Shown in pieces: positions 5,292-63,285 of a stretch of DNA of 64,000 nucleotides. Made by a program: the position numbers and the translations under genes. Position 1 is the stretch's first letter. The number at the start of each line of letters is the position of its first letter. The notes under the pieces were generated by a model. The model saw only the letters and a list, made by a program, of their open reading frames with translations. It was not told the origin of the DNA and searched no databases. This DNA is from Octopus vulgaris (Eukaryota): the NCBI GenBank assembly GCA_951406725.2, contig OX597815.1, positions 185,256,001 through 185,320,000 of the forward strand, in the 5' to 3' direction.

Positions 5292-5331
<40 letters not shown>

Positions 5332-5509
5332 TATATATATATTTATGTACATACGTAGATATATATATATATATATATATAAATATATCACAATCAAGGA
5401 ACGGCCATAATAGGCCATTCACCCACTAGAAATAACAGCCAAAAGCTTTAACCGCAAAATAACATTAATACCGTAAACCAGGAGAAAATTGAAAAACTTT
5501 TACCCTGTA

Positions 5510-5616
5510 ATTTCTTAGACGATGCACCGTTTCATCTACCGTTTAATGGTAAACTAACCTGATTAAATTAAATCAAGCCAATCCACCATAGGCCCTTAGA
5601 CTCATCAGTAAGAAAT
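5510..5616 (-). ncRNA. Type I hammerhead ribozyme, copy 1
   Basis: AUUUCUUA-CUGAUGA-GUCUA...UAGAU-GAAA-CGGUGCAUCG-UC^UAAGAAAU. Confidence 0.88.
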
Positions 5617-5994
5617 AGCCAAATCGGAACAGATATTTTTCACGAGGCATTCCTCTTGCTGCCTCGGCAATATCTGACCTAAAATTTTCAAATCGTCGCA
5701 CTCGCGCCAAATTTATCGGCAGCAAATGAACCACCGATTCCGTTACGGAACTAACCAGAAAATTCATAATTAATCAATATAGGGTGGCAAAAAAAATTTT
5801 GTAGAATTCTTTTGCCACCAGCGGCCTAGTAGGAAAAAATTAAATAGTCATAAACCATTTTTACGTTCAACATCACAATCAAGGAACGGCCATAATAGGC
5901 CATTCACCCACTAGAAATAACAGCCAAAAGCTTTAACCGCAAAATAACATTAATACCGTAAACCAGGAGAAAATTGAAAAACTTTTACCCTGTA

Positions 5995-6101
5995 ATTTCT
6001 TAGACGATGCACCGTTTCATCTACCGTTTAATGGTAAACTAACCTGATTAAATTAAATCAAGCCAATCCACCATAGGCCCTTAGACTCATCAGTAAGAAA
6101 T
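5995..6101 (-). ncRNA. Type I hammerhead ribozyme, copy 2
   Basis: Same core and stems as copy 1. Confidence 0.88.
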
Positions 6102-6479
6102 AGCCAAATCGGAACAGATATTTTTCACGGGGCATTCCTCTTGCTGCCTCGGCAATATCTGACCTAAAATTTTCAAATCGTCGCACTCGCGCCAAATTTA
6201 TCGGCAGCAAATGAACCACCGATTCCGTTACGGAAATAACCAGAAAATTCATAATTAATCAATATAGGGTGGCAAAAAAAATTTTGTAGAATTCTTTTGC
6301 CACCAGCGGCCTAGTAGGAAAAAATTAAATAGTCATAAACCATTTTTACGTTCAACATCACAATCAAGGAACGGCCATAATAGGCCATTCACCCACTAGA
6401 AATAACAGCCAAAAGCTTTAACCGCAAAATAACATTAATACCGTAAACCAGGAGAAAATTGAAAAACTTTTACCCTGTA

Positions 6480-6586
6480 ATTTCTTAGACGATGCACCGT
6501 TTCATCTACCGTTTAATGGTAAACTAACCTGATTAAATTAAATCAAGCCAATCCACCATAGGCCCTTAGACTCATCAGTAAGAAAT
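6480..6586 (-). ncRNA. Type I hammerhead ribozyme, copy 3
   Basis: Same core and stems as copy 1. Confidence 0.88.
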
Positions 6587-6963
6587 AGCCAAATCGGAAC
6601 AGATATTTTTCACGAGGCATTCCTCTTGCTGCCTCGGCAATATCTGACCTAAAATTTTCAAATCGTCGCACTCGCGCCATATTTATCGGCAGCAAATGAA
6701 CCACCGATTCCGTTACGGAACTAACCAGAAAATTCATAATTAATCAATATAGGGTGGCAAAAAAATTTTGTAGAATTCTTTTGCCACCAGCGGCCTAGTA
6801 GGAAAAAATTAAATAGTCATAAACCATTTTTACGTTCAACATCACAATCAAGGAACGGCCATAATAGGCCATTCACCCACTAGAAATAACAGCCAAAAGC
6901 TTTAACCGCAAAATAACATTAATACCGTAAACCAGGAGAAAATTGAAAAACTTTTACCCTGTA

Positions 6964-7070
6964 ATTTCTTAGACGATGCACCGTTTCATCTACCGTTTAA
7001 TGGTAAACTAACCTGATTAAATTAAATCAAGCCAATCCACCATAGGCCCTTAGACTCATCAGTAAGAAAT
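6964..7070 (-). ncRNA. Type I hammerhead ribozyme, copy 4
   Basis: Same core and stems as copy 1. Confidence 0.88.
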
Positions 7071-7447
7071 AGCCAAATCGGAACAGATATTTTTCACGAG
7101 GCATTCCTCTTGCTGCCTCGGCAATATCTGACCTAAAATTTTCAAATCGTCGCACTCGCGCCAAATTTATCGGCAGCAAATGAACCACCGATTCCGTTAC
7201 GGAACTAACCAGAAAATTCATAATTAATCAATATAGGGTGGCAAAAAAATTTTGTAGAATTCTTTTGCCACCAGCGGCCTAGTAGGAAAAAATTAAATAG
7301 TCATAAACCATTTTTACGTTCAACATCACAATCAAGGAACGGCCATAATAGGCCATTCACCCACTAGAAATAACAGCCAAAAGCTTTAACCGCAAAATAA
7401 CATTAATACCGTAAACCAGGAGAAAATTGAAAAACTTTTACCCTGTA

Positions 7448-7554
7448 ATTTCTTAGACGATGCACCGTTTCATCTACCGTTTAATGGTAAACTAACCTGA
7501 TTAAATTAAATCAAGCCAATCCACCATAGGCCCTTAGACTCATCCGTAAGAAAT
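7448..7554 (-). ncRNA. Type I hammerhead ribozyme, copy 5, core-mutated (CUGAUGA to CGGAUGA)
   Basis: Plus strand reads CATCCG instead of CATCAG at position 7545. Confidence 0.8.
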
Positions 7555-7932
7555 AGCCAAATCGGAACAGATATTTTTCACGAGGCATTCCTCTTGCTGC
7601 CTCGGCAATATCTGACCTAAAATTTTCAAATCGTCGCACTCGCGCCAAATTTATCGGCAGCAAATGAACCACAGATTCCGTTACGGAACTAACCAGAAAA
7701 TTCATAATTAATCAATATAGGGTGGCAAAAAAAATTTTGTAGAATTGTTTTGCCACCAGCGGCCTAGTAGGAAAAAATTAAATAGTCATAAACCATTTTT
7801 ACGTTCAACATCACAATCAAGGAACGGCCATAATAGGCCATTCACCCACTAGAAATAACAGCCAAAAGCTTTAACCGCAAAATAACATTAATACCGTAAA
7901 CCAGGAGAAAATTGAAAAACTTTTACCCTGTA

Positions 7933-8039
7933 ATTTCTTAGACGATGCACCGTTTCATCTACCGTTTAATGGTAAACTAACCTGATTAAATTAAATCAAG
8001 CCAATCCACCATAGGCCCTTAGACTCATCAGTAAGAAAT
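7933..8039 (-). ncRNA. Type I hammerhead ribozyme, copy 6
   Basis: Same core and stems as copy 1. Confidence 0.88.
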
Positions 8040-8085
8040 AGCCAAATCGGAACAGATATTTTTCACGAGGCATTCCTCTTGCTGC

Positions 8086-8615
8086 AAGAATTCTACAAAA
8101 TTTTTTTTGCCACCCTATATTGATTAATTATGAATTTTCTGGTTAGTTCCGTAACGGAATCGGTGGTTCATTTGCTGCCGATAAATTTGGCGCGAGTGCG
8201 ACGATTTGAAAATTTTAGGTCAGATATTGCCGAGGCAGCAAGAGGAATGCCTCGTGAAAAATATCTGTTCCGATTTGGCTATTTCTTACTGATGAGTCTA
8301 AGGGCCTATGGTGGATTGGCTTGATTTAATTTAATCAGGTTAGTTTACCATTAAACGGTAGATGAAACGGTGCATCGTCTAAGAAATTACAGGGTAAAAG
8401 TTTTTCAATTTTCTCCTGGTTTACGGTATTAATGTTATTTTGCGGTTAAAGCTTTTGGCTGTTATTTCTAGTGGGTGAATGGCCTATTATGGCCGTTCCT
8501 TGATTGTGATGTTGAACGTAAAAATGGTTTATGACTATTTAATTTTTTCCTACTAGGCCGCTGGTGGCAAAAGAATTCTACAAAATTTTTTTGCCACCCT
8601 ATATTGATTGATTAT
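8086..8615 (+). mobile_element. Inverted, slightly longer than monomer copy of the retrozyme unit
   Basis: Reverse complement of the tandem unit, joined at GCTGC|AAGAATTC. Confidence 0.9.
8281..8387 (+). ncRNA. Type I hammerhead ribozyme, copy 7 (inverted unit)
   Basis: Stem I 8281-8288/8380-8387, CTGATGA 8289-8295, GAAA 8364-8367, predicted GUC cleavage after 8379. Confidence 0.88.
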
Positions 8616-8649
8616 ATATAAATATATATATATATTTATGTACATACGT

Positions 8650-8714
<65 letters not shown>

Positions 8715-9226
8715 TGAGTATTGTAGATCGCTTGAAGCATTGTGTATTGTTTGTAAAGAATAAGATGTTTTGAATGGTACAACAATGCACTATAATGCAA
8801 ACAATTGGCTATATACCTGATGTAATTTAGTTATCCATAATCTGATATGATATTTTGGAATCATATTCCTTCTTCAAATATTATTAGAATATACTCCATC
8901 TAAGAATCTCTGGAGAGGAATATTGTTCCGAAATATCATATCATATTATGGAATGACTAAATTACAACCGGTATATAGCCCATTGTCTGTATTATGGTAC
9001 AACGTTGTATCATTCAAAACTTTTTATTCGTTATATATATATATAGATATGTGTGTGTGTGTGTGTGTGTGTAACAAATGTGGAGTGGAAAGCGATATAT
9101 ATATATATGTCCATATTTAGATTCAGATGAATATGGTACGTAAGATGAGGCACTAGAATTTAGTACAGTATTATCCATACAATTTCAAAATAAGGCGATT
9201 AAAATCAAAACAAAGCTATCCGAAGA

Positions 9227-9663
9227 TAATGCAGTACGATCGTTTCAACCAACTCCATTTAATTGAACAATGGAATCATTACATCAATTTAAATGCAGAG
9301 CAATCCTGAGCTGCATAAAGACATGGAATTTAAGTAAGTTAAAACAGAGGAAGACATTAGAATAATTATCCCCTAAAATCTCCAAGAAGGGTAGGAGATA
9401 GGCAAAGAACATACTGTCTTCACTTTAGCTTAGAAGTTACTCTAAGCTGAAGCTACTTCTAAGCTGAAGTGAAGACAGCATGTTCTTTGTCTATTCCTTA
9501 TCTTCTAGGAGATTTTAGTAAAAATTATACTAATGTGTCCATCTGTTTTAATTTAATTAATTGCTACGTCTTTATGCAGCTGACGATTGCTCTGCAATTA
9601 AATTGATGTAATGATTGCATTGTTCAATTAAATGGAGTTGCTTGAAACGATCGTACTGCATTA
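9227..9663. repeat. Imperfect inverted repeat of about 200-bp arms; each arm ends in a hammerhead-like motif (Penelope-like pLTR pair)
   Basis: TAATGCAGTACGATCGTTTCAA...TTGAAACGATCGTACTGCATTA. Right arm: ATGCAG-CTGACGA...GAAA-CGATCG-TA-CTGCAT at 9574-9661. Confidence 0.7.
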
Positions 9664-9694
9664 CCTCTTGATGTCCTTCATGCTTATTTTGATG

Positions 9695-9699
9695 TTATA

Positions 9700-9755
<56 letters not shown>

Positions 9756-10180: not shown

Positions 10181-11334
10181 CTTTGATACTTTGATAGGTT
10201 TCGGCCATTATTGGCCCAGGCCATGTCTAACTTAATAGCACCACCTGGTGAAGTCTTTCAAGTCAGAATTTGGGCACTATGGCCGACTCAAGTAGAGAGT
10301 TATTGTTTACAGAGACATATCCGGGTGTAGGGGGTTTATCCGGGATTTCTTGAAGGAATCTGTCCAAAGACTTCTTGAACCCTATAGGGTCAGTTTCTGT
10401 TTTAATGTGTTTTGGTGTAATGTTAAAGAGAGCGGGGCCAATTGAGGTGAAATAATTGTGCCGTATTGTTGTTATGAGATGAGAGTGCGATTTTTGTTTT
10501 GGGCGGATGGCACGGGGCCCAAGCCTTGGATGTACCTTAAAGGTGATGCCAACATCATTTGGGCAATGCTGATGGAATATTTTCCACATCATGCAGATGA
10601 TGTAGCGCTCACGACGACGTTGGAGAGAATAGAGTTTTAGCTTTTCTAGTCGACCCCAATAGTCGAGGCCTGTCATGCCATCTATCTTTTTTGTGATTGC
10701 CCTTTGAGGTGCTTCGACTTTTTTGATACCTTGTATTGTGTGGGGAGACCACAGTGGACAACAGTATTCAAGGTGGGGTCGGGCAAAAGTGGAGAAGAGA
10801 GGGATAATGGTGTGGATATCTCTCGACTGGAAAGTTCTGAGAATCCAGGAACACATTCTGCGGGCCATGTCAACTTTGGTGTTTATATGAGTGGCCCAGC
10901 TTACGTTGTTGTCCACAATTACTCCCAAGTCTCTGATGTTGTTGGACGCCGCGAGAGTTTCACCTGAAGGAAGGGAGTATGGGAGTTTCAGGGCATCCTC
11001 TTTTCCAAAGTGGATTAGCTCAAATTTATCCTCGTTCAGCAGCATATTGTTTTTTTCTGCCCATTGGATAACAGCCAGTAGATCTGACTGAAGGCATGTC
11101 CGGTCACTCGCCTCATTTATGACCTTCTGTAGCTTGGAGTCATCTGCAAAGATTTTTATGTTGCTGTGCTTGATGATGTCATTAATGTCATTAATGTAAA
11201 TGATAAAAAGAAGTGGGCCCAGCACAGTGCCTTGCGGAACGCCACTACTGACTTTGGCTGGGCTTGATTTTACCCCTTCAACTACAACATGTTGAGATCT
11301 GTCTGTCAGGAAACACTTAATCCATTTCAGTAAC

Positions 11335-11943: not shown

Positions 11944-14900
11944 TCATGGGGGCTTTCTAGCAACTGCTATTTGGTGCATGAGAGAGTTCGATGCAGCTGC
12001 CCTCATCTGCCCCTCCTGCCGTGAAGTTGGTTCATCTGGGACACCAGACAGGAAGAGATCCAGCTTCATTTTAAAGACATCTGTATCCACCCCATGCAGG
12101 TCTCTCAGGTTCTTCGGGAGGATATTGAAGAGCTGTGGGCCTCGGAAGCCCAGGCTATCACAGAATCTTGTCCTACATCTTGATGGCAGGTTTGGAGTCC
12201 TAGGCACCACGCAGTGCGCCCAGTTCTGGCATTTGTGTAACTCTCGATGCCAAAGTTCAGGACACTTCCCTCCAGGATCTTCCAGATGTATATTATGGCA
12301 TATCTTTCCCGCCTACGCTCCAGGGAGTATAATTTTAATCTCTTGAGTCTTTCCCAGTAGCTTACATTCTGCATAGAGGCTATCTTCTTTGTGTAGCTTC
12401 GTTGGATCGCCTCAAGTTCTGTGATCAACTTGACACTGGATGGTGACCATAGCTGAGAGCAATAGTCAAAGTGGCTTAGGACAAGTGTCTTCCAGAGGAC
12501 CATCATGGTTTCTTGTTCTCTTGTTCTAAAGGTTCTAAGAATCCAGCCAGCCAGCCGTCTACATTTCACTGTCAGTTTAGCAACATGTACATGAAAGGTC
12601 GCGTCATCACTCATGTGAATACCCAGGTCACGCACTGATTGTGCCTCTGGGATTGCAATCCCTCCGGGTCCAGTGTATTCATTGGGTATTGCATTCAGTT
12701 TTGCATGCTGATAGTATAAAGCTTGAAACTTTCCAGCATTGAACTGCATGCTATTCTTTTCAGCCCACTTGTATATTTCGTCCAGCTCACATTGCAGGTT
12801 TTTAGTGTCCTCAGGGTTCTGTATTGCCTGTGAAACTTTTGTATCATCTGCATAACTTGTGATCGTGGATCTCTGCGTGGCTGAGGGCATGTCTGAGAGG
12901 GCCATTATGAACAGTAGTGGTCCCAAAACAGTGCCCTGTGGAACACCACTCATTATTTGCGTGTTAATGGAAGTGGCCCCATTGGCTACTACCACCTGAC
13001 TTCTATTCTTCAGAAAGTCGTGAAGCCATTCTCCTAGTTTTCCAACTATGCCAAGATCACGCAACCTGTGACATATCATTCCGTGATCGACTTTATCGAA
13101 GGCCTTTGCGAAGTCGAGATATATGACTTCCACATTTGAGTGGTTGAGCAGTTGTTTCAGCACCCAGTCATAGTGCTGCAGGAGCTGAGTTAAGCAGCTT
13201 CTTCCTGGTCGGAAACCATGTTGGGTGTCAGGCAGCAAGTCATTTTCTTCAAGGAAGGTGATTAGTTTCCTTCTGACTATTCGTTCCATGACCTTGCTGA
13301 TGTGTGAGGTCAGAGAGATAGGTCTGTAGTTCTTTGCCTCCGCTCTGCTACCTCCTTTATGAATAGGGCATATTTTACCTTCCTTCAGTCCCCTTGGAAG
13401 TTTGCCAGCTGCAAGGAAGCTCTGAAAGAGGGACTGCAGTGGTCTTGCTAAGACTCTCTTACATACTTTTAGGAGGATTGCCGGGAATCCATCGGGGCCA
13501 GTAGCTGAGTCTATTTTCATTTCATCTATAGCCTTTATTACATCGTCTTCCTTTATCTCGATGTAACTTATCGTCGCCGCCTCTGATTCTATATCTGCAG
13601 TGGTAAAGAAGTCAGTTGGATTGCTGATTTGGAAATGCCCAAGGGGTGGAGTGAAAACACTCTTGAATTGTTCATTCAGTATTTCACTTACCCTCATTGG
13701 TTTTCCTGTGAGTGTGCCATCCTTTTCAAGGAGTGGCCCTATCCTACAGTGCACTGTAGCCGTTTCTTTGGCATACCTGTAGAAAGCTCTGGGGTTAGTT
13801 TTTATGTTGTCTATAGCCCAGGCTTCTTTGTCTGCTCTTTCCTTCTCATGGGAAAGTTGCAGACAATTTTCAATTTCCAACAGTTTTATTTTCAGGCGGG
13901 ACTTTTCACTACTTTCAATTTGTTTGTTTAGGCGATTTGAAATTTTTGTACGCCGTCTCATTAAAATTTTCCTCTCTCTGGGGATTTTGTTCTTGTGTAC
14001 AGTGGCCTTTCTCTCTGGGACACATTTGTAGCATATGGCTTGCATTACAGACATGAATTGTTGAAGTATCATGTCGATGTCCGGCGAGGAGAGACATTCA
14101 GGCCAGTTTTGTTTGAGGATCTCTTTCTCAATTTGTTTCCAGTTTGCCTTATTGAAGTTCAAGCTGGAAAGATTCTGAGGGTTTCTTGTAGGCTGCATGT
14201 CCGTGCTCTCTTTTGGCCCGTACATGGTCAGCTCTACCATGTTGTGATCCGAGAGTAGTGTCGGTGTCACTTTCACATTATGGATGAGATCCATATTATT
14301 TGTGAAGCAGAGATCCAGTGTGTTACCTGCTCTGGTTGGTTGCAGTACTACTTGCTCCATGTACAGGGTGTTGGTGAGGTTCAGGAGGGACCTCGCCTGT
14401 CCACGTTCACATCTTGTCATTCCTGGGAGAGAAAGGCCCTCGGGCCATCTGACATTCGGTAGATTGAAGTCTCCCATGAGAAGTACACTTATGTGTTGTT
14501 CTAATGTGGTTAGAACTTCTTCTATTTTTAAAAGGCAGTCCTCGAACTTGCCCATATGACTTGGGGCATCTGGAGGGCGATATGTAGCACACACAACTAC
14601 ATCAAGTTGCCTTATGTGTACAATTAGTGTGTCACACACCGAGTTTGAGTATGACAAAAGGACCTGGGGTGTGAGGTCCCCACGGATGTACATAGCAACT
14701 CCTCCATGACTCCTTTCTTTCCTGTCGGTCCGTAGTACAACATACTGTGGTATGTGTAATTCCGCATCTGCTATGTCCGGTTTCAGATGCGTTTCTGTGA
14801 GTGCTATGCATAAGGCTTGATTGCATGCGACAAAGTCTCTCAGGAACGGGACTTTTGTCCTGTTACTGTGTGTTAGTAAACCTCTGATGTTCAGTAGGAG

Positions 14901-15242
14901 CATCGAGGTGAGGTGTATGCTGTTGCCGGCGTTGTCCACCCTGGGTCCATCTGCTGTGGCGGTCTTGTGAACTGTGGGCAGTTCCATCTGCGAGCCTGAG
15001 CCTGATGGAGCCAGGTTAACTGCTGTACAATCTTTTGTGCCATGCACAAAAAGATTCCTGCTCAGCAGCTGCCCTTTCAACAACACGTTGGTGGTTTGTG
15101 GTACGCACCACATCTGCGTACCTCCGTTTTGGGGCAGGTGATGCCTGGTCCATCCCATTTCCTTTCGGTGGTTGGTTTCTGTGGCAGGGTCCCGGATGTG
15201 CAAAGCGGCAGCCTGCACCTTCCTCTCCATGCCGGCAGGCAC
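11944..15242 (-). CDS. LINE ORF2, apurinic-type endonuclease plus reverse transcriptase; one 1-bp frameshift near 12215
   Basis: EN motifs LNIRG, ALTETHL, YRPP, GDFNLP, LDLCF, SDH. RT motifs [37 protein letters not shown]. The C-terminus continues in the 11944-12210 frame. The real start may be the ATG at 14987. Confidence 0.92.
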
Positions 15243-15780
15243 CTTTCAGGTAGAACCTACATACCCGTGTGCGCTGCTTGTTTCCATCCTTTTTGGCATA
15301 TGGACCGTTAGGTTTGCCTCTGTCCCTGGCTGCCTTGTCCCTTGGCTTTGTCTGAGTTTTAGCTTCAGTTTTTCCTCTTTTTTTGGCCTCTTCATCTCCA
15401 TGTCCACGGCTTTTGGAGCCGGTAGGAGCATCCGTACCTGGGTTCACCTCCCGGGCAGGCCTATCGTTGGAGTTTTCTTCCTGGGCGTCCACCAGGTGGG
15501 GGTGACCCTCCTCATCTGCGCCCACGTCTCCATCCTTGCCATCTTTACTTTGTTCGCGTTTTTCGCTGTTAAAAATGGCATCCAGTGTGTTTATGTGCGA
15601 TCTGACAAGTGCGTATGAGCGTACGAACTCTTGCCTCTTCCGCTCTATTTGTGCTGATGTCCTTTTGAATCCTTTGTTCTTTAGTGCTGCCGCAATTATG
15701 TTACTTGGACTTTCTCCGTCAGCGCATTGCCATCCTCGCAGGAACCACACCAGTTCATCACGTTTCCAAGCTCTGGACAT
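15016..15780 (-). CDS. LINE ORF1 protein with a CCCH-type zinc finger and a possible Myb/trihelix-like N-terminus
   Basis: [22 protein letters not shown] (C-x7-C-x8-C-x3-H). N-terminal AWKRDEL...RTSAQIERKRQE. Lies directly upstream of ORF2. Confidence 0.8.
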   Translation of the reverse strand: MSRAWKRDELVWFLRGWQCADGESPSNIIAAALKNKGFKRTSAQIERKRQEFVRSYALVRSHINTLDAIFNSEKREQSKDGKDGDVGADEEGHPHLVDAQEENSNDRPAREVNPGTDAPTGSKSRGHGDEEAKKRGKTEAKTQTKPRDKAARDRGKPNGPYAKKDGNKQRTRVCRFYLKGACRHGEEGAGCRFAHPGPCHRNQPPKGNGMDQASPAPKRRYADVVRTTNHQRVVERAAAEQESFCAWHKRLYSS

Positions 15781-17378
15781 TCTTGATATATTATCTATCT
15801 ATCTAATTATGTTAAGTAATATTAATCCAAAGTAGGGGGGTAATAGAGAAAGAGAGCGTCTATGTACTTAAGGAGAGATTGGGAGCCAAGAGAAGAGAGC
15901 AGGAGAGAAGAGGAAGAGGAGAGATATTTTGTCTATCTATCTATCTATCTAGTTATATTAAGTTATATTAATCCAATAGTGCAATAGGGGGGGTAGGGGG
16001 TAATAGAGAAAGAGAGCGTCCGTGCACTTAAGGAGAGATTGGGAGCCAAGAGAAGAGAGCAAGAGAGTAGAGGAAGAGGAGATACTGAGTGCTGAAGGAA
16101 GATAGAGAAAGCCTCTAGAGGAGAGCTGAGATAGACAGAGAAAGCGCAAAGGGAGAGAACCGAAGAGACAGACAGAGAGATCTAAACGAAGCTATTGGGC
16201 CAAGGAGGGGCGCAAGGGAGAGAACTGGAGAGACAGATAGAATTCTAAGCGAAGCTATTGGGACATACATATGTATACACACACACACACACATGTACAC
16301 ACGTGTGCACATGCACATATATAGACAAGAGTAACAAGTGAGTACACAAAGAGACAATAATAATAATGAAACATATATAGGCATATATTACAAAACATAT
16401 ATAAACATATATTACAAAGTAATAATAGTAAGAGATTATAAGACAATAATAATAATAAAAATGAAAAATAAAATAAAATAAAACAGCTGAAAGAAAAGAA
16501 AAGAAAGAAAGAAAAAACAGGCCAGGAGGTTTTACAGAGTTTATATATATATATGTAGTATATACATACGCACATATATATATATAACACACACACATAT
16601 ATTTAACAAGTGATAATAATAATAGATAATAAAATAGTGTAATAATATATTTGTCCGCCGCAACAGACAAATTCTTCTATAACAAAACTATAACTAATTG
16701 CGACTATACCTTTAATAATAATTAAAACAGCTGAAAGAAAACACGCCAAGAAATGGCAATATATATTTATTTTAAGATAAACTAATGTCTCTTAAGATAA
16801 ACTACAATACGATTCTACTACTAACACACATGCACGTATATATAGATATATGCGCACATACATATATAAACAGAGTAACAGGTAATTTATAGATAATAGA
16901 TTTAACGAAATTAACAGTAACAAGAATTTGTGATACGTTTTTGCAAGGATATAAACGATTCTACTACTAACACACACACACACATGCACGTATATACTAA
17001 CACACACACACATACGCACATACATATATAAACAGAGTAACAGGTAATTTATAGATAATAGATTTAACGAAATTAACAGTAACAAGAATTTGTGATACGT
17101 TTTTGCGAGGATATATACAGGAATTTGGGTACTTATCGTCTGGAAATAAAATTAGATTCCACGTGCGTATCGCTCGAAAGAGATCTTTGTGTCAAAACTT
17201 GACTTGTGGCAGAAATATATTGCGATTTTTAAGCAAATATCCAGGTACGCGTCTATAAAGTAACAATTTCCACGTTTTGTGAGTGATTTGCCAAGTTATT
17301 TCGTCGATTTTATGCAGCCCTTCTTGTTTTTTATCGCAGAGAGAGACAACACGTGTTTACTCTACGAAAGCCGGAAGT

Positions 17379-27274: not shown

Positions 27275-28050
27275 CTACTCTAGGCAACAGGCCCGAAATT
27301 TTTGGGGGCGGGGGGGTCGCTTAAATCGGCCCCAGAACTTAACAGGTACTTAATTTATCGACTCCGAAAGGATGAAAGGCAAAGTCGACCTCGGCGAAAT
27401 TTGAACTCAGAACGTAAAAGATGAAATACCGATTTCCTTACAAGGGGCAAAACACAGAGAGGACAAACAAGGACAGACAAACGGATTAAGTCGATTATAT
27501 CGACCCCAGTGCGAAACTGGTACTTAATTTACTCGACCCCGAAAGGATGAAAGGCAAAGTCGACCTCGGCGAAATTTGAACTCAGAAGGTAAAAGATGAA
27601 ATACCGATTTCTTTACTACCCACAAGGGACAAAACACAGAGAGGACAAACAAGGACATACAAACGGATTAAGTCGATTATATCGACCCCAGTGCGTAACT
27701 GGTACTTATTTACTCGACCCCGAAAAGATGAATGGCAAAGTCGACCTCGGTGGAATTTGAACTCAGAACGTAACGGCAGACGAAATACCGCTAGGCATTT
27801 CGCCCGGGGTGCTACCTTTTCTGCTAGCTCGCCGCCTTTATTCTTTTCTACTCTAGGCACAAGGCCCGATATTTTGGAAGTGGCCAGTTGATTAGATCGA
27901 TCTCAGTACGCAACTGGTACTTGATTTATCGATCCAGAAAGGATGAACGGCAAAGTCGACCTCGGCGAAATTTGAACTCAGAACGTAGCGGCAGACAAAA
28001 TACCGCCAAGGATTTCGCCCGGCGTGCTAACGTTTTTGCCAGCTCGCCAC
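27275..28050 (-). mobile_element. Cluster of tandem SINE family A units
   Basis: Four GGCAAAGTCGACCTCGG body units and two heads. Confidence 0.8.
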
Positions 28051-62837: not shown

Positions 62838-63285
62838 TTATTTCTTCATTGCCCACAGCGGGGCAAAAGCTCGCGAGCAAAAGGGCAAAAACTCGCTCGA
62901 TAGAGGAGACAAACAAGGACAGACAAACGGATTAAGTCGATTATATCGACCCCAGTGCGTAACTGGTACTTATTTAATCGACCTCAAAAGGATGAAATGC
63001 AAAGTCAACCTCGGCGGAATTTGAACTCAGAACGTAACGACAGACGAAATAACTATTTCTTTACTACCCACAAGGGGCTAAACACAGAGAGGAGAAACAA
63101 GGACAGACAAACGGATTACGTCGATTATATCGACCCCAGTGCGTAACTGGTACTTATTTAATCGACCCCGAAAGGATGAAAGGCAAAGTCCACCTCGGCG
63201 GTATTTGAACTCAGAACGTAACGGCAGACGAAATACCGTGAAGTATTTTGCCCGACATGCTAACGATTGTGCCAGCTCGTTGCCC
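62838..63285 (-). mobile_element. SINE family A dimer
   Basis: Head plus two body units. Confidence 0.82.

Follow-up and report, generated by a model that had tools for sequence, protein, structure and literature searches.

A two-armed hammerhead retrozyme in Octopus vulgaris and its possible copying from an RNA circle by a Penelope-like enzyme

A 64,000-nucleotide stretch of the Octopus vulgaris genome (assembly GCA_951406725.2, contig OX597815.1, positions 185,256,001 to 185,320,000 of the forward strand; hereafter, the window) carries at positions 5387–8615 an array of 485-nt units, each built around a type I hammerhead ribozyme. The array almost certainly belongs to a dispersed, young, non-coding, hammerhead-bearing family of retrozymes that lack long terminal repeats (non-LTR retrozymes). 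This class is known, but the architecture of the insertions has not been described for it and ties the family to the enzymes of Penelope-like elements (PLEs). We propose, with a probability of about 0.5, that the insertions record how a Penelope-type enzyme reverse-transcribed an RNA circle in rolling-circle fashion, with obligatory, strand-specific priming at two fixed sites on one RNA.

Array anatomy and the two outer ends

Unit positions are counted from the hammerhead cleavage site. The long arm of the array is a tandem repeat of period 485 with 5.6 copies and 99% matches (Tandem Repeats Finder, 5387–8085), and its five complete units carry 0–3 changes each compared with the first. This agrees with the initial annotation, which had described about 5.6 nearly identical units and an inverted one. 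The inverted piece (8086 to about 8615) is real, but it had been overlooked that it constitutes a second arm, joined head to head with the first inside a duplicated 62-bp (TA)n target. As the hammerheads read on the minus strand in the long arm and on the plus strand in the short one, the arms meet 5′ to 5′. The features of the insertion are as follows.

5320–5381, no strand: left copy of the target-site duplication, 62 bp, an interrupted (TA)n microsatellite with 13 non-TA steps, an exact match to 8613–8674
5387–8085, minus: arm A, 5.56 tandem units; in RNA sense its 3′ end is unit 131 (site A, at 5387) and its 5′ end unit 341
5387–5417, minus: site A, fixed outer end with the hairpin just upstream of it (unit 101–131)
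5518–6002, minus: reference monomer from cleavage site to cleavage site, 485 nt, non-coding
5510–5616, minus: hammerhead, core intact, C17 at 5518
5995–6101, minus: hammerhead, core intact, C17 at 6003
6480–6586, minus: hammerhead, core intact, C17 at 6488
6964–7070, minus: hammerhead, core intact, C17 at 6972
7448–7554, minus: hammerhead with the core change U4>G at 7545, C17 at 7456, probably inactive
7933–8039, minus: hammerhead, core intact, C17 at 7941
8085–8086, no strand: head-to-head (5′-5′) junction of the arms, overlap zero
8086–8615, plus: arm B, 1.09 units; 5′ end unit 192, 3′ end unit 232–237 (site B)
8281–8387, plus: type I hammerhead; stem I 8281–8288/8380–8387 (8 bp), core CUGAUGA 8289–8295, stem II of 67 nt, GAAA, palindromic stem III of 12 nt, GUC cleavage site after 8379
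8590–8615, plus: site B, fixed outer end (unit 212–237), the end itself at 8610–8615
8613–8674, no strand: right copy of the target-site duplication, 62 bp

The monomer is non-coding, as had been stated, its longest stop-free frame being 66 aa. The GC content of the unit is ~37%, unit lengths in the family range from 484 to 492 nt, and the monomer folds better than all 100 shuffles (z −5.25). It had also been regarded as unusually long for a retrozyme, which is not borne out by the reported families of 51–972 bp (bioRxiv 10.64898/2026.07.22.740005; this and the other papers cited are drawn on in part). No terminal direct repeats were found at the insertion, where no search was aimed at a primer-binding site (PBS) or polypurine tract (PPT) as such. 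The unit yielded no tRNA gene, no match to a Pol III A/B box or TATA on the sense strand by a simple motif search, and no open reading frame (ORF) for a reverse transcriptase (RT) or GIY-YIG domain; the tblastn matches, at 3 loci, were unrelated flanking fragments only.

A search of the octopus's own genome (2.8 Gb) gave 831 candidates, the 40 best loci of which were scored as sample 1. These loci hold 226 unit matches, and their full-length units are 94–100% identical. The exact 3′ motif of the ribozyme is present in at least 955 copies and that of a second subfamily in at least 212, while exact site A and exact site B with TA ends are found at least 418 and 919 times, respectively. All exact counts are lower bounds, and the A pattern undercounts because site A has variants; reversed-pattern controls for motifs and ends gave 0. 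In a DNA run filed under a second organism label, 0.62 of the unit words are present (word matches only). Motif counts, end counts and the scored loci together support the earlier proposal of a mobile, dispersed family, and the target duplication in the window is a sign of retroposition, as expected of a non-LTR retrozyme.

The array had been thought to start and stop at arbitrary points of the unit. Instead, the two outer ends in the window, unit 131 and unit 232–237, are the sites shared by 65 of the 67 arms of sample 1, which end at unit 131–134 (A) or 232–241 (B). An A arm is paired with a B arm in 25 of 27 two-arm loci of this sample, the other two being one rearranged and one N-masked locus; 13 loci are single-armed, although inspection by eye reveals a short second arm at 2 of these. 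Sample 2 comprised 40 regions of contig C1, 31 picked by the A end and 9 by the ribozyme motif alone, with L163 left out as rearranged. It gave A+B in 32 of 36 two-arm insertions, four with one arm ending elsewhere and four single insertions; among the loci picked on the ribozyme motif alone, 8 of 9 were A+B. In sample 3, consisting of 20 regions picked by the B end (21 ends; 16 further B-end loci and four second-subfamily regions were left out), 14 of the 21 B ends face an A arm (12 by BLAST, 2 by eye), six are single and one is cut by the region edge. Over all samples, the 77 two-arm insertions scored divide into 71 A+B, 0 A+A, 0 B+B and 6 broken ones.

The inner ends are spread over the unit (Kolmogorov–Smirnov p 0.31), and arm lengths in the A-selected set fit an exponential with a mean of ~470 nt; arms in the family range from tens of bases to 14 units. 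The outer ends are thus fixed and the inner ends variable, and the argument for a circle from arbitrary ends is unsupported. Of 78 loci, 68 have a (TA)4 tract on each side and another 9 on one side, compared to a background of 8%; the arms overlap by 0–6 nt at 40 of 61 junctions. At four loci (L044, L048, L051, L163), the junctions contain short repeated or scrambled pieces of the unit, resembling stuttering template switches. The same TA-rich stretch can hold more than one insertion: at G000:C1:195860562-195870114 (L155, L167-L182), a subfamily 2 insertion of 14 + 3 units directly adjoins a separate subfamily 1 insertion, and at L132 two separate two-arm insertions lie ~500 bp apart, suggesting re-use of TA tracts.

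The hammerhead ribozyme

Seven GUC^UAAGAAAU cleavage sites are present in the window array, as expected from the seven complete hammerheads claimed initially, but the CUGAUGA core is intact in only six of the seven. The sequence CTGATGAG occurs 6 times compared to 1.47 expected, a number reached by 0 of 100 shuffles. With its CUGANGA / GAAA / UH core, stems I–III and the opening at stem I, the motif is a type I hammerhead, and the 8-bp stem I and GUC cleavage triplet described before are found on the window motifs. Arm A contains 4 consecutive units with an intact hammerhead, exceeding the two consecutive complete motifs by which the class is recognized. On the opposite strand of the unit, no ribozyme was found.

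A scan with covariance models, suggested earlier as a way of finding type I hammerheads, did not detect the one in the unit: Rfam scans of the window and the unit gave no hammerhead match, either at the gathering score or at E≤10. This is probably due to the 67-nt stem II. A match to mir-5728 in these scans, scoring 25.6 bits where the cut-off is 100, was dismissed as a hairpin arising by chance, and a genome scan with RF00163 gave 6 matches, all of other families without similarity to the 485-nt unit. Stem II is also long in a second hammerhead family (L121, L122, L125, at ~1501–1608), which scores above the RF00163 cut-off; it is arranged head to head in a TA tract at L121 and followed by an ORF-like stretch at L122, and is probably a PLE pseudo-LTR (pLTR). 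More short type I hammerheads above the Rfam cut-off lie outside tandem arrays (L120, L123, L124).

Constraint was analysed on the majority sequence of each locus, with L040, L044, L045 and L163 left out. In the core, only N7 (T/C/G/A) and H17 (C/A) segregate, and at hammerhead position 10.1 a G/A variant segregates opposite U. Stem I shows zero segregating positions, and the linker regions have 12–17% segregating sites. Neither site A (unit 101–131), for which this was partly selected by the search pattern, nor site B (unit 212–237) has a segregating site among the sampled loci. The second subfamily, 87.5% identical, has A-U replaced by G-C in stem I next to the cut, and in stem II; its stem III palindrome is changed from UGCA- to UAUA-centred with self-complementarity kept. 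Judged from this pattern of variation, the ribozyme is under constraint and its core varies only at tolerant positions.

The single hammerhead fold of the window subfamily lies 3.9 kcal above the minimum, and the minimum-energy fold of a two-unit transcript is a double hammerhead paired through the 12-bp stem III palindrome. The predicted double hammerhead parallels the dimers of axolotl retrozymes, which cleave much better in that form (PMC7229834). Therefore, a monomer transcript that does not cleave would not refute the retrozyme idea.

Template, enzyme and competing explanations

At 50 of 51 informative sites, the two arms of a locus carry the same base, and the median arm-to-arm distance is 0.21% compared to 1.66% between loci. 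This was obtained from 43 pairs, one of them mis-paired at L155, where two separate neighbouring insertions had been compared; the true arms there are 99.2–100% alike. Variants carried by every unit outnumber partial ones by 76:8 in sample 1 (38 loci) and by 352:10 in sample 2, and sample 1 contains 99 single-unit changes in 73 kb (38 loci). The 38 loci fall into nineteen haplotypes, and private variants can be fixed in as many as 7 units; L050, L041 and L049 have arms of 5–7 units with private variants in each unit, and the longest arm has 14 units. Since copying shortens arms, long uniform arms with new variants need a re-multimerised monomer, and a monomer-to-multimer copying step is indicated.

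The arms cross the cleavage site 246 times. Of 245 motif matches, one of them spurious, 241 are of exact length, and none shows extra bases at the cut. In addition, 21 stops lie within 30 nt of the site against 9.6 expected, and four arms stop exactly at it against 0.31 expected, including both arms of L060. On sequence grounds, these exact ends are likely the footprint of real cleavage. A covalent circle, sometimes nicked at the ribozyme site, fits best as the template.

PLE insertions are characterized by partial tandems, an inverted 5′-truncated copy and a 30–40-bp tail on one end only (bioRxiv 10.1101/2021.04.23.441226; PMC3846280). In vitro, a purified PLE protein was found to cleave AT-rich DNA on both strands and to extend both, initiating at two sites within the RNA; the stretch between these sites is the tail (PMC11167929). 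The retrozyme insertions have this anatomy, with an inverted 5′-truncated arm, a tail on one end and an AT-rich target, and integration of the PLE type is accordingly very probable. The borrowing of a Penelope-like enzyme, previously assumed by analogy, is now supported by the fixed A+B ends, the inverted arm and the (TA)n target themselves.

Autonomous PLEs co-occur with the retrozyme, as they do with known retrozymes. A GIY-YIG search of the genome, in which 150 of 6136 candidates were scored and 20 loci extended, revealed a young RT + GIY-YIG element with a Neptune-type cysteine motif; a frame of 781 codons is the longest in 15 of the 16 loci fetched, and in the 16th it was masked by a TA-repeat frame. 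This Neptune-like element also targets (TA)n, and its two ends are separated by ~40 nt; in 3/3 head-to-head loci (L082, L105, L107), each arm carries one of them. Members of its family (L100-L115) form partial tandems, carry an ORF-like region upstream and have, ahead of the ends, a motif that looks like a degenerate minimal hammerhead. Another GIY-YIG PLE family (L116, L119, L073, L097) has two TA-abutting 3′ ends ~35 nt apart. Three candidate links to a mobilising partner were rejected: a 53-bp match at L072 turned out to be a short insertion of an A arm into a TA tract, with a GIY-YIG fragment lying ~1.1 kb away; the Neptune protein matched by tblastn only flanking fragments of retrozyme loci; and a LINE (long interspersed nuclear element) with an intact ORF2 in the window (12105–15245) does not suit ends that are PLE-like and without poly(A) or a repeat tail.

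Taken as a whole, a chain in which the hammerhead retrozyme is mobilised in trans by a PLE protein, including the circle and twin priming, is considered somewhat probable. The hammerheads, probably joined in pairs by their palindromic stem III to form double hammerheads, would cut read-through transcripts of tandem copies after GUC/GUA into 485–491-nt monomers. A host ligase could then close the monomer into a circle, in which a lone hammerhead would be poorly folded, by analogy with mussel, coral and axolotl retrozymes. At a (TA)n tract, where the ends are observed, the GIY-YIG/RT protein of a PLE would nick both strands, and one 3′ end would prime at unit 131 and the other at unit 232–237, aided by AT/TA microhomology of a few bases. 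The observed pattern suggests that both cDNAs would then run round one and the same molecule, over distances between tens of bases and 14 turns, and that in most cases they would pass the ligated cut site without interruption. Finally, the two cDNAs would be joined head to head, usually with the 0–6 nt overlap seen at the junctions, producing one arm of each kind and, at some loci, a recognizable duplication of the target.

Several points weigh against this scheme. Target duplications are informative in few loci (62 bp in the window, 70 bp at L039, 15 bp at L068). Mosaic arrays with 8 and 10 partial variants are not explained by one pass round one circle, the 14-unit arm of subfamily 2 shows a T/C block switch at one position, and single-unit variation possibly reflects polishing artefacts. 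At 9 of 57 loci (2.1 expected), the end points of the two arms fall within the same turn and nearly coincide, which also fits a fold-back of the first cDNA. For the ribozyme, covariation among 12 distinct sequences is not beyond shuffles (54/500 for the score, 21/500 for pairs changed on both sides), so that the conservation pattern is the stronger evidence. No homologous pLTR was found by blastn and end comparison at 50 GIY-YIG loci of about 8 PLE families, including the Neptune-like one. For the anole PLE in vitro, the start sites show no strand difference, ribozyme cleavage is dispensable and unprocessed RNA is the main substrate (PMC11167929). In addition, the unit is not enriched in the three RNA-type runs: relative to the DNA run, the flanking repeats are covered about as deeply as the unit or more deeply.

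These runs also bear on the expectation that the unit should be found in RNA. Many sequencing runs guessed to be RNA contain unit words, and in 3 of 3 RNA-type runs contigs cover the unit (contigs only; the RNA status is guessed and the library type not given), so that presence stands but enrichment over the flanks does not, and a high level of expression finds no support. Contigs reveal neither strand nor ends nor level, their depths are unusable as expression levels, and circles would be missing from any library selected for poly(A). A joint in X2 that goes back 485 was rejected as evidence for a circle, as it does not separate circle from tandem. A feces metatranscriptome contains a small share, 0.08, of the unit words and was not used as evidence.

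The same retrozyme and PLE enzyme could also operate on an uncleaved linear multimer transcript of the parent array, for which a circle is unneeded; homogeneity would then come from homogeneous parents or later DNA-level conversion. Such a template is in agreement with the preference of the anole PLE, with seamless junctions, which are expected from uncleaved RNA, with the mosaics and the block switch, and with the lack of RNA enrichment. It is nevertheless unlikely, because with exponential arm lengths linear copying alone would shorten arrays in every round, and the arms of 5–7 units with private variants in all units require a monomer bottleneck and re-multimerisation. Moreover, partial variant states are rare, and the strong conservation of the ribozyme core argues for a role of cleavage.

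The inverted arm could derive from fold-back (self-priming) of the first cDNA, or from an antisense template, rather than from a second target-primed start. Such an origin has been proposed for Penelope from junction palindromes (PMC3846280), several of the nearly equal end points lie at palindromes, and the arms of a locus share one haplotype. The arm lengths of a locus are also correlated (rho 0.42), which together with the nearly equal end points is compatible both with fold-back and with a pair of enzymes travelling jointly along one RNA. However, the arms share no sequence at L130 and L146, and by eye also at L166, L199 and L204, and in 8 of 57 loci neither arm is contained in the other. 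Arms without shared sequence favour two independent target-primed starts, although a hairpin-centre deletion could mimic them. Single-unit variants are in general not mirrored between arms, and we regard an origin by fold-back or from an antisense template as improbable.

Template jumps by non-LTR enzymes are usually imprecise, and this is one reason why the template is quite improbably a cleaved linear monomer, that is, a nicked circle held by stem I on which the enzyme jumps from the 5′ end to its own 3′ end at each turn. The excess of 5′ ends at unit 1–30, and exactly at 1, is what such a template predicts, whereas the crossings show no pile-up and the matches no untemplated bases at the cut. 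Finally, local expansion of a satellite or minisatellite whose ribozyme motif is decayed or there by chance is suggested by the tandem organization and the missing Rfam match but has next to no probability, given hundreds of dispersed short arrays, target duplication, (TA)n targets and a constrained core, with the dispersal found by the genome-wide unit search and the end rule already largely refuting it.

Known systems, neighbouring repeats and significance

The octopus family is similar to metazoan non-LTR retrozymes in its non-coding tandem units of a few hundred bp with low GC, one type I hammerhead per unit, dispersal, lack of LTR, PBS and PPT, long target duplication where visible, and co-occurrence with PLEs (PMC7229834; bioRxiv 10.64898/2026.07.22.740005). 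Axolotl retrozymes also share the palindromic loop III and the predicted dimer activity. It differs in its 67-nt stem II. In Xenopus, 24 of 57 retrozyme families have pLTR homology to a partner PLE (bioRxiv 10.64898/2026.07.22.740005), whereas none was found for the octopus unit among the GIY-YIG loci. The main texts of both retrozyme papers describe no inverted or head-to-head arms and no pair of fixed 3′ ends, that of bioRxiv 10.64898/2026.07.22.740005 describes no tail for retrozymes, and that of PMC7229834 no microsatellite targeting. No cephalopod figures among the animals sampled in those main texts. In agreement with the initial annotation, which did not recognize the family as described from a cephalopod, the literature searched, which did not extend to subscription papers, contains no description of an octopus or cephalopod retrozyme or hammerhead, nor of twin priming by Penelope elements. 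Within that literature, this appears to be the first retrozyme reported from a cephalopod.

Endonuclease-bearing PLEs (Neptune, Poseidon, Naiad; PMC11167929, PMC3846280, bioRxiv 10.1101/2021.04.23.441226) share partial tandems, the inverted 5′-truncated head-to-head arm, the tail at one end, two internal start sites, (TA)n or AT-rich targets and a hammerhead near the ends. In contrast to these, the octopus unit has no ORF, its tail is ~100 nt compared to 30–40, its hammerhead is canonical rather than minimal, and its arms are multimers of one short unit. The anole PLE starts at non-homologous sites, whereas both octopus start sites have microhomology to the target.

In LINE-1 twin priming, both target strands prime on one RNA and give a 5′-5′ junction with microhomology. 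The octopus retrozyme resembles it in the proposed two-strand priming on one RNA and in the 5′-5′ junction, and differs in its fixed internal starts without a poly(A) tail; two arms are the exception in LINE-1 but the majority outcome here. Plant LTR retrozymes and viroid-like circles are likewise hammerhead-bearing non-coding RNAs with a strong fold, but their hammerhead is of type III, compared to type I without LTRs in the octopus unit, which, unlike viroid-like circles, shows no ribozyme on the opposite strand and no sign of RNA-to-RNA replication.

Other repeats surround the insertion in the window. To its right, at 8720–9030 and 9190–9700, there are imperfect inverted repeats resembling miniature inverted-repeat transposable elements, with high copy in the DNA run. 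A LINE at 12105–15798 (minus) has a 1046-codon open frame with AP (apurinic/apyrimidinic) endonuclease and RT, preceded by a frame with a CCCH-like motif, and looks young and near full length; the 3′ part of a second LINE RT frame lies beside a TA tract at 10263–11333 (minus). Tandem doublets with a period of ~183 at 2073–2424, 27316–27773 and 62902–63235 are made of a repeat that we take to be a SINE (short interspersed nuclear element).

The return of animal retrozymes to the genome has so far been a hypothesis in which PLE enzymes copy circles (PMC7229834), their mobility mechanism is left open (bioRxiv 10.64898/2026.07.22.740005), and the origin of the tandem and inverted structures of PLEs has been called undefined (bioRxiv 10.1101/2021.04.23.441226). 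The octopus family has the youth, copy number and polymorphism needed to interpret every insertion as a single event, in terms of its priming sites, run lengths and the use of one molecule or two. The strict rule of one A and one B arm goes beyond the in vitro work on a PLE, in which two start sites without a strand difference were observed (PMC11167929), and the insertion architecture makes the model of a circle with twin priming directly testable. If the circle is confirmed, the family would provide an example from nature of reverse transcription by a rolling circle, targeted to microsatellites. If true, rolling-circle copying would explain both the spread of animal retrozymes and the head-to-head arms of PLEs with their tail at one end, and would supply a natural 485-nt test substrate for both.

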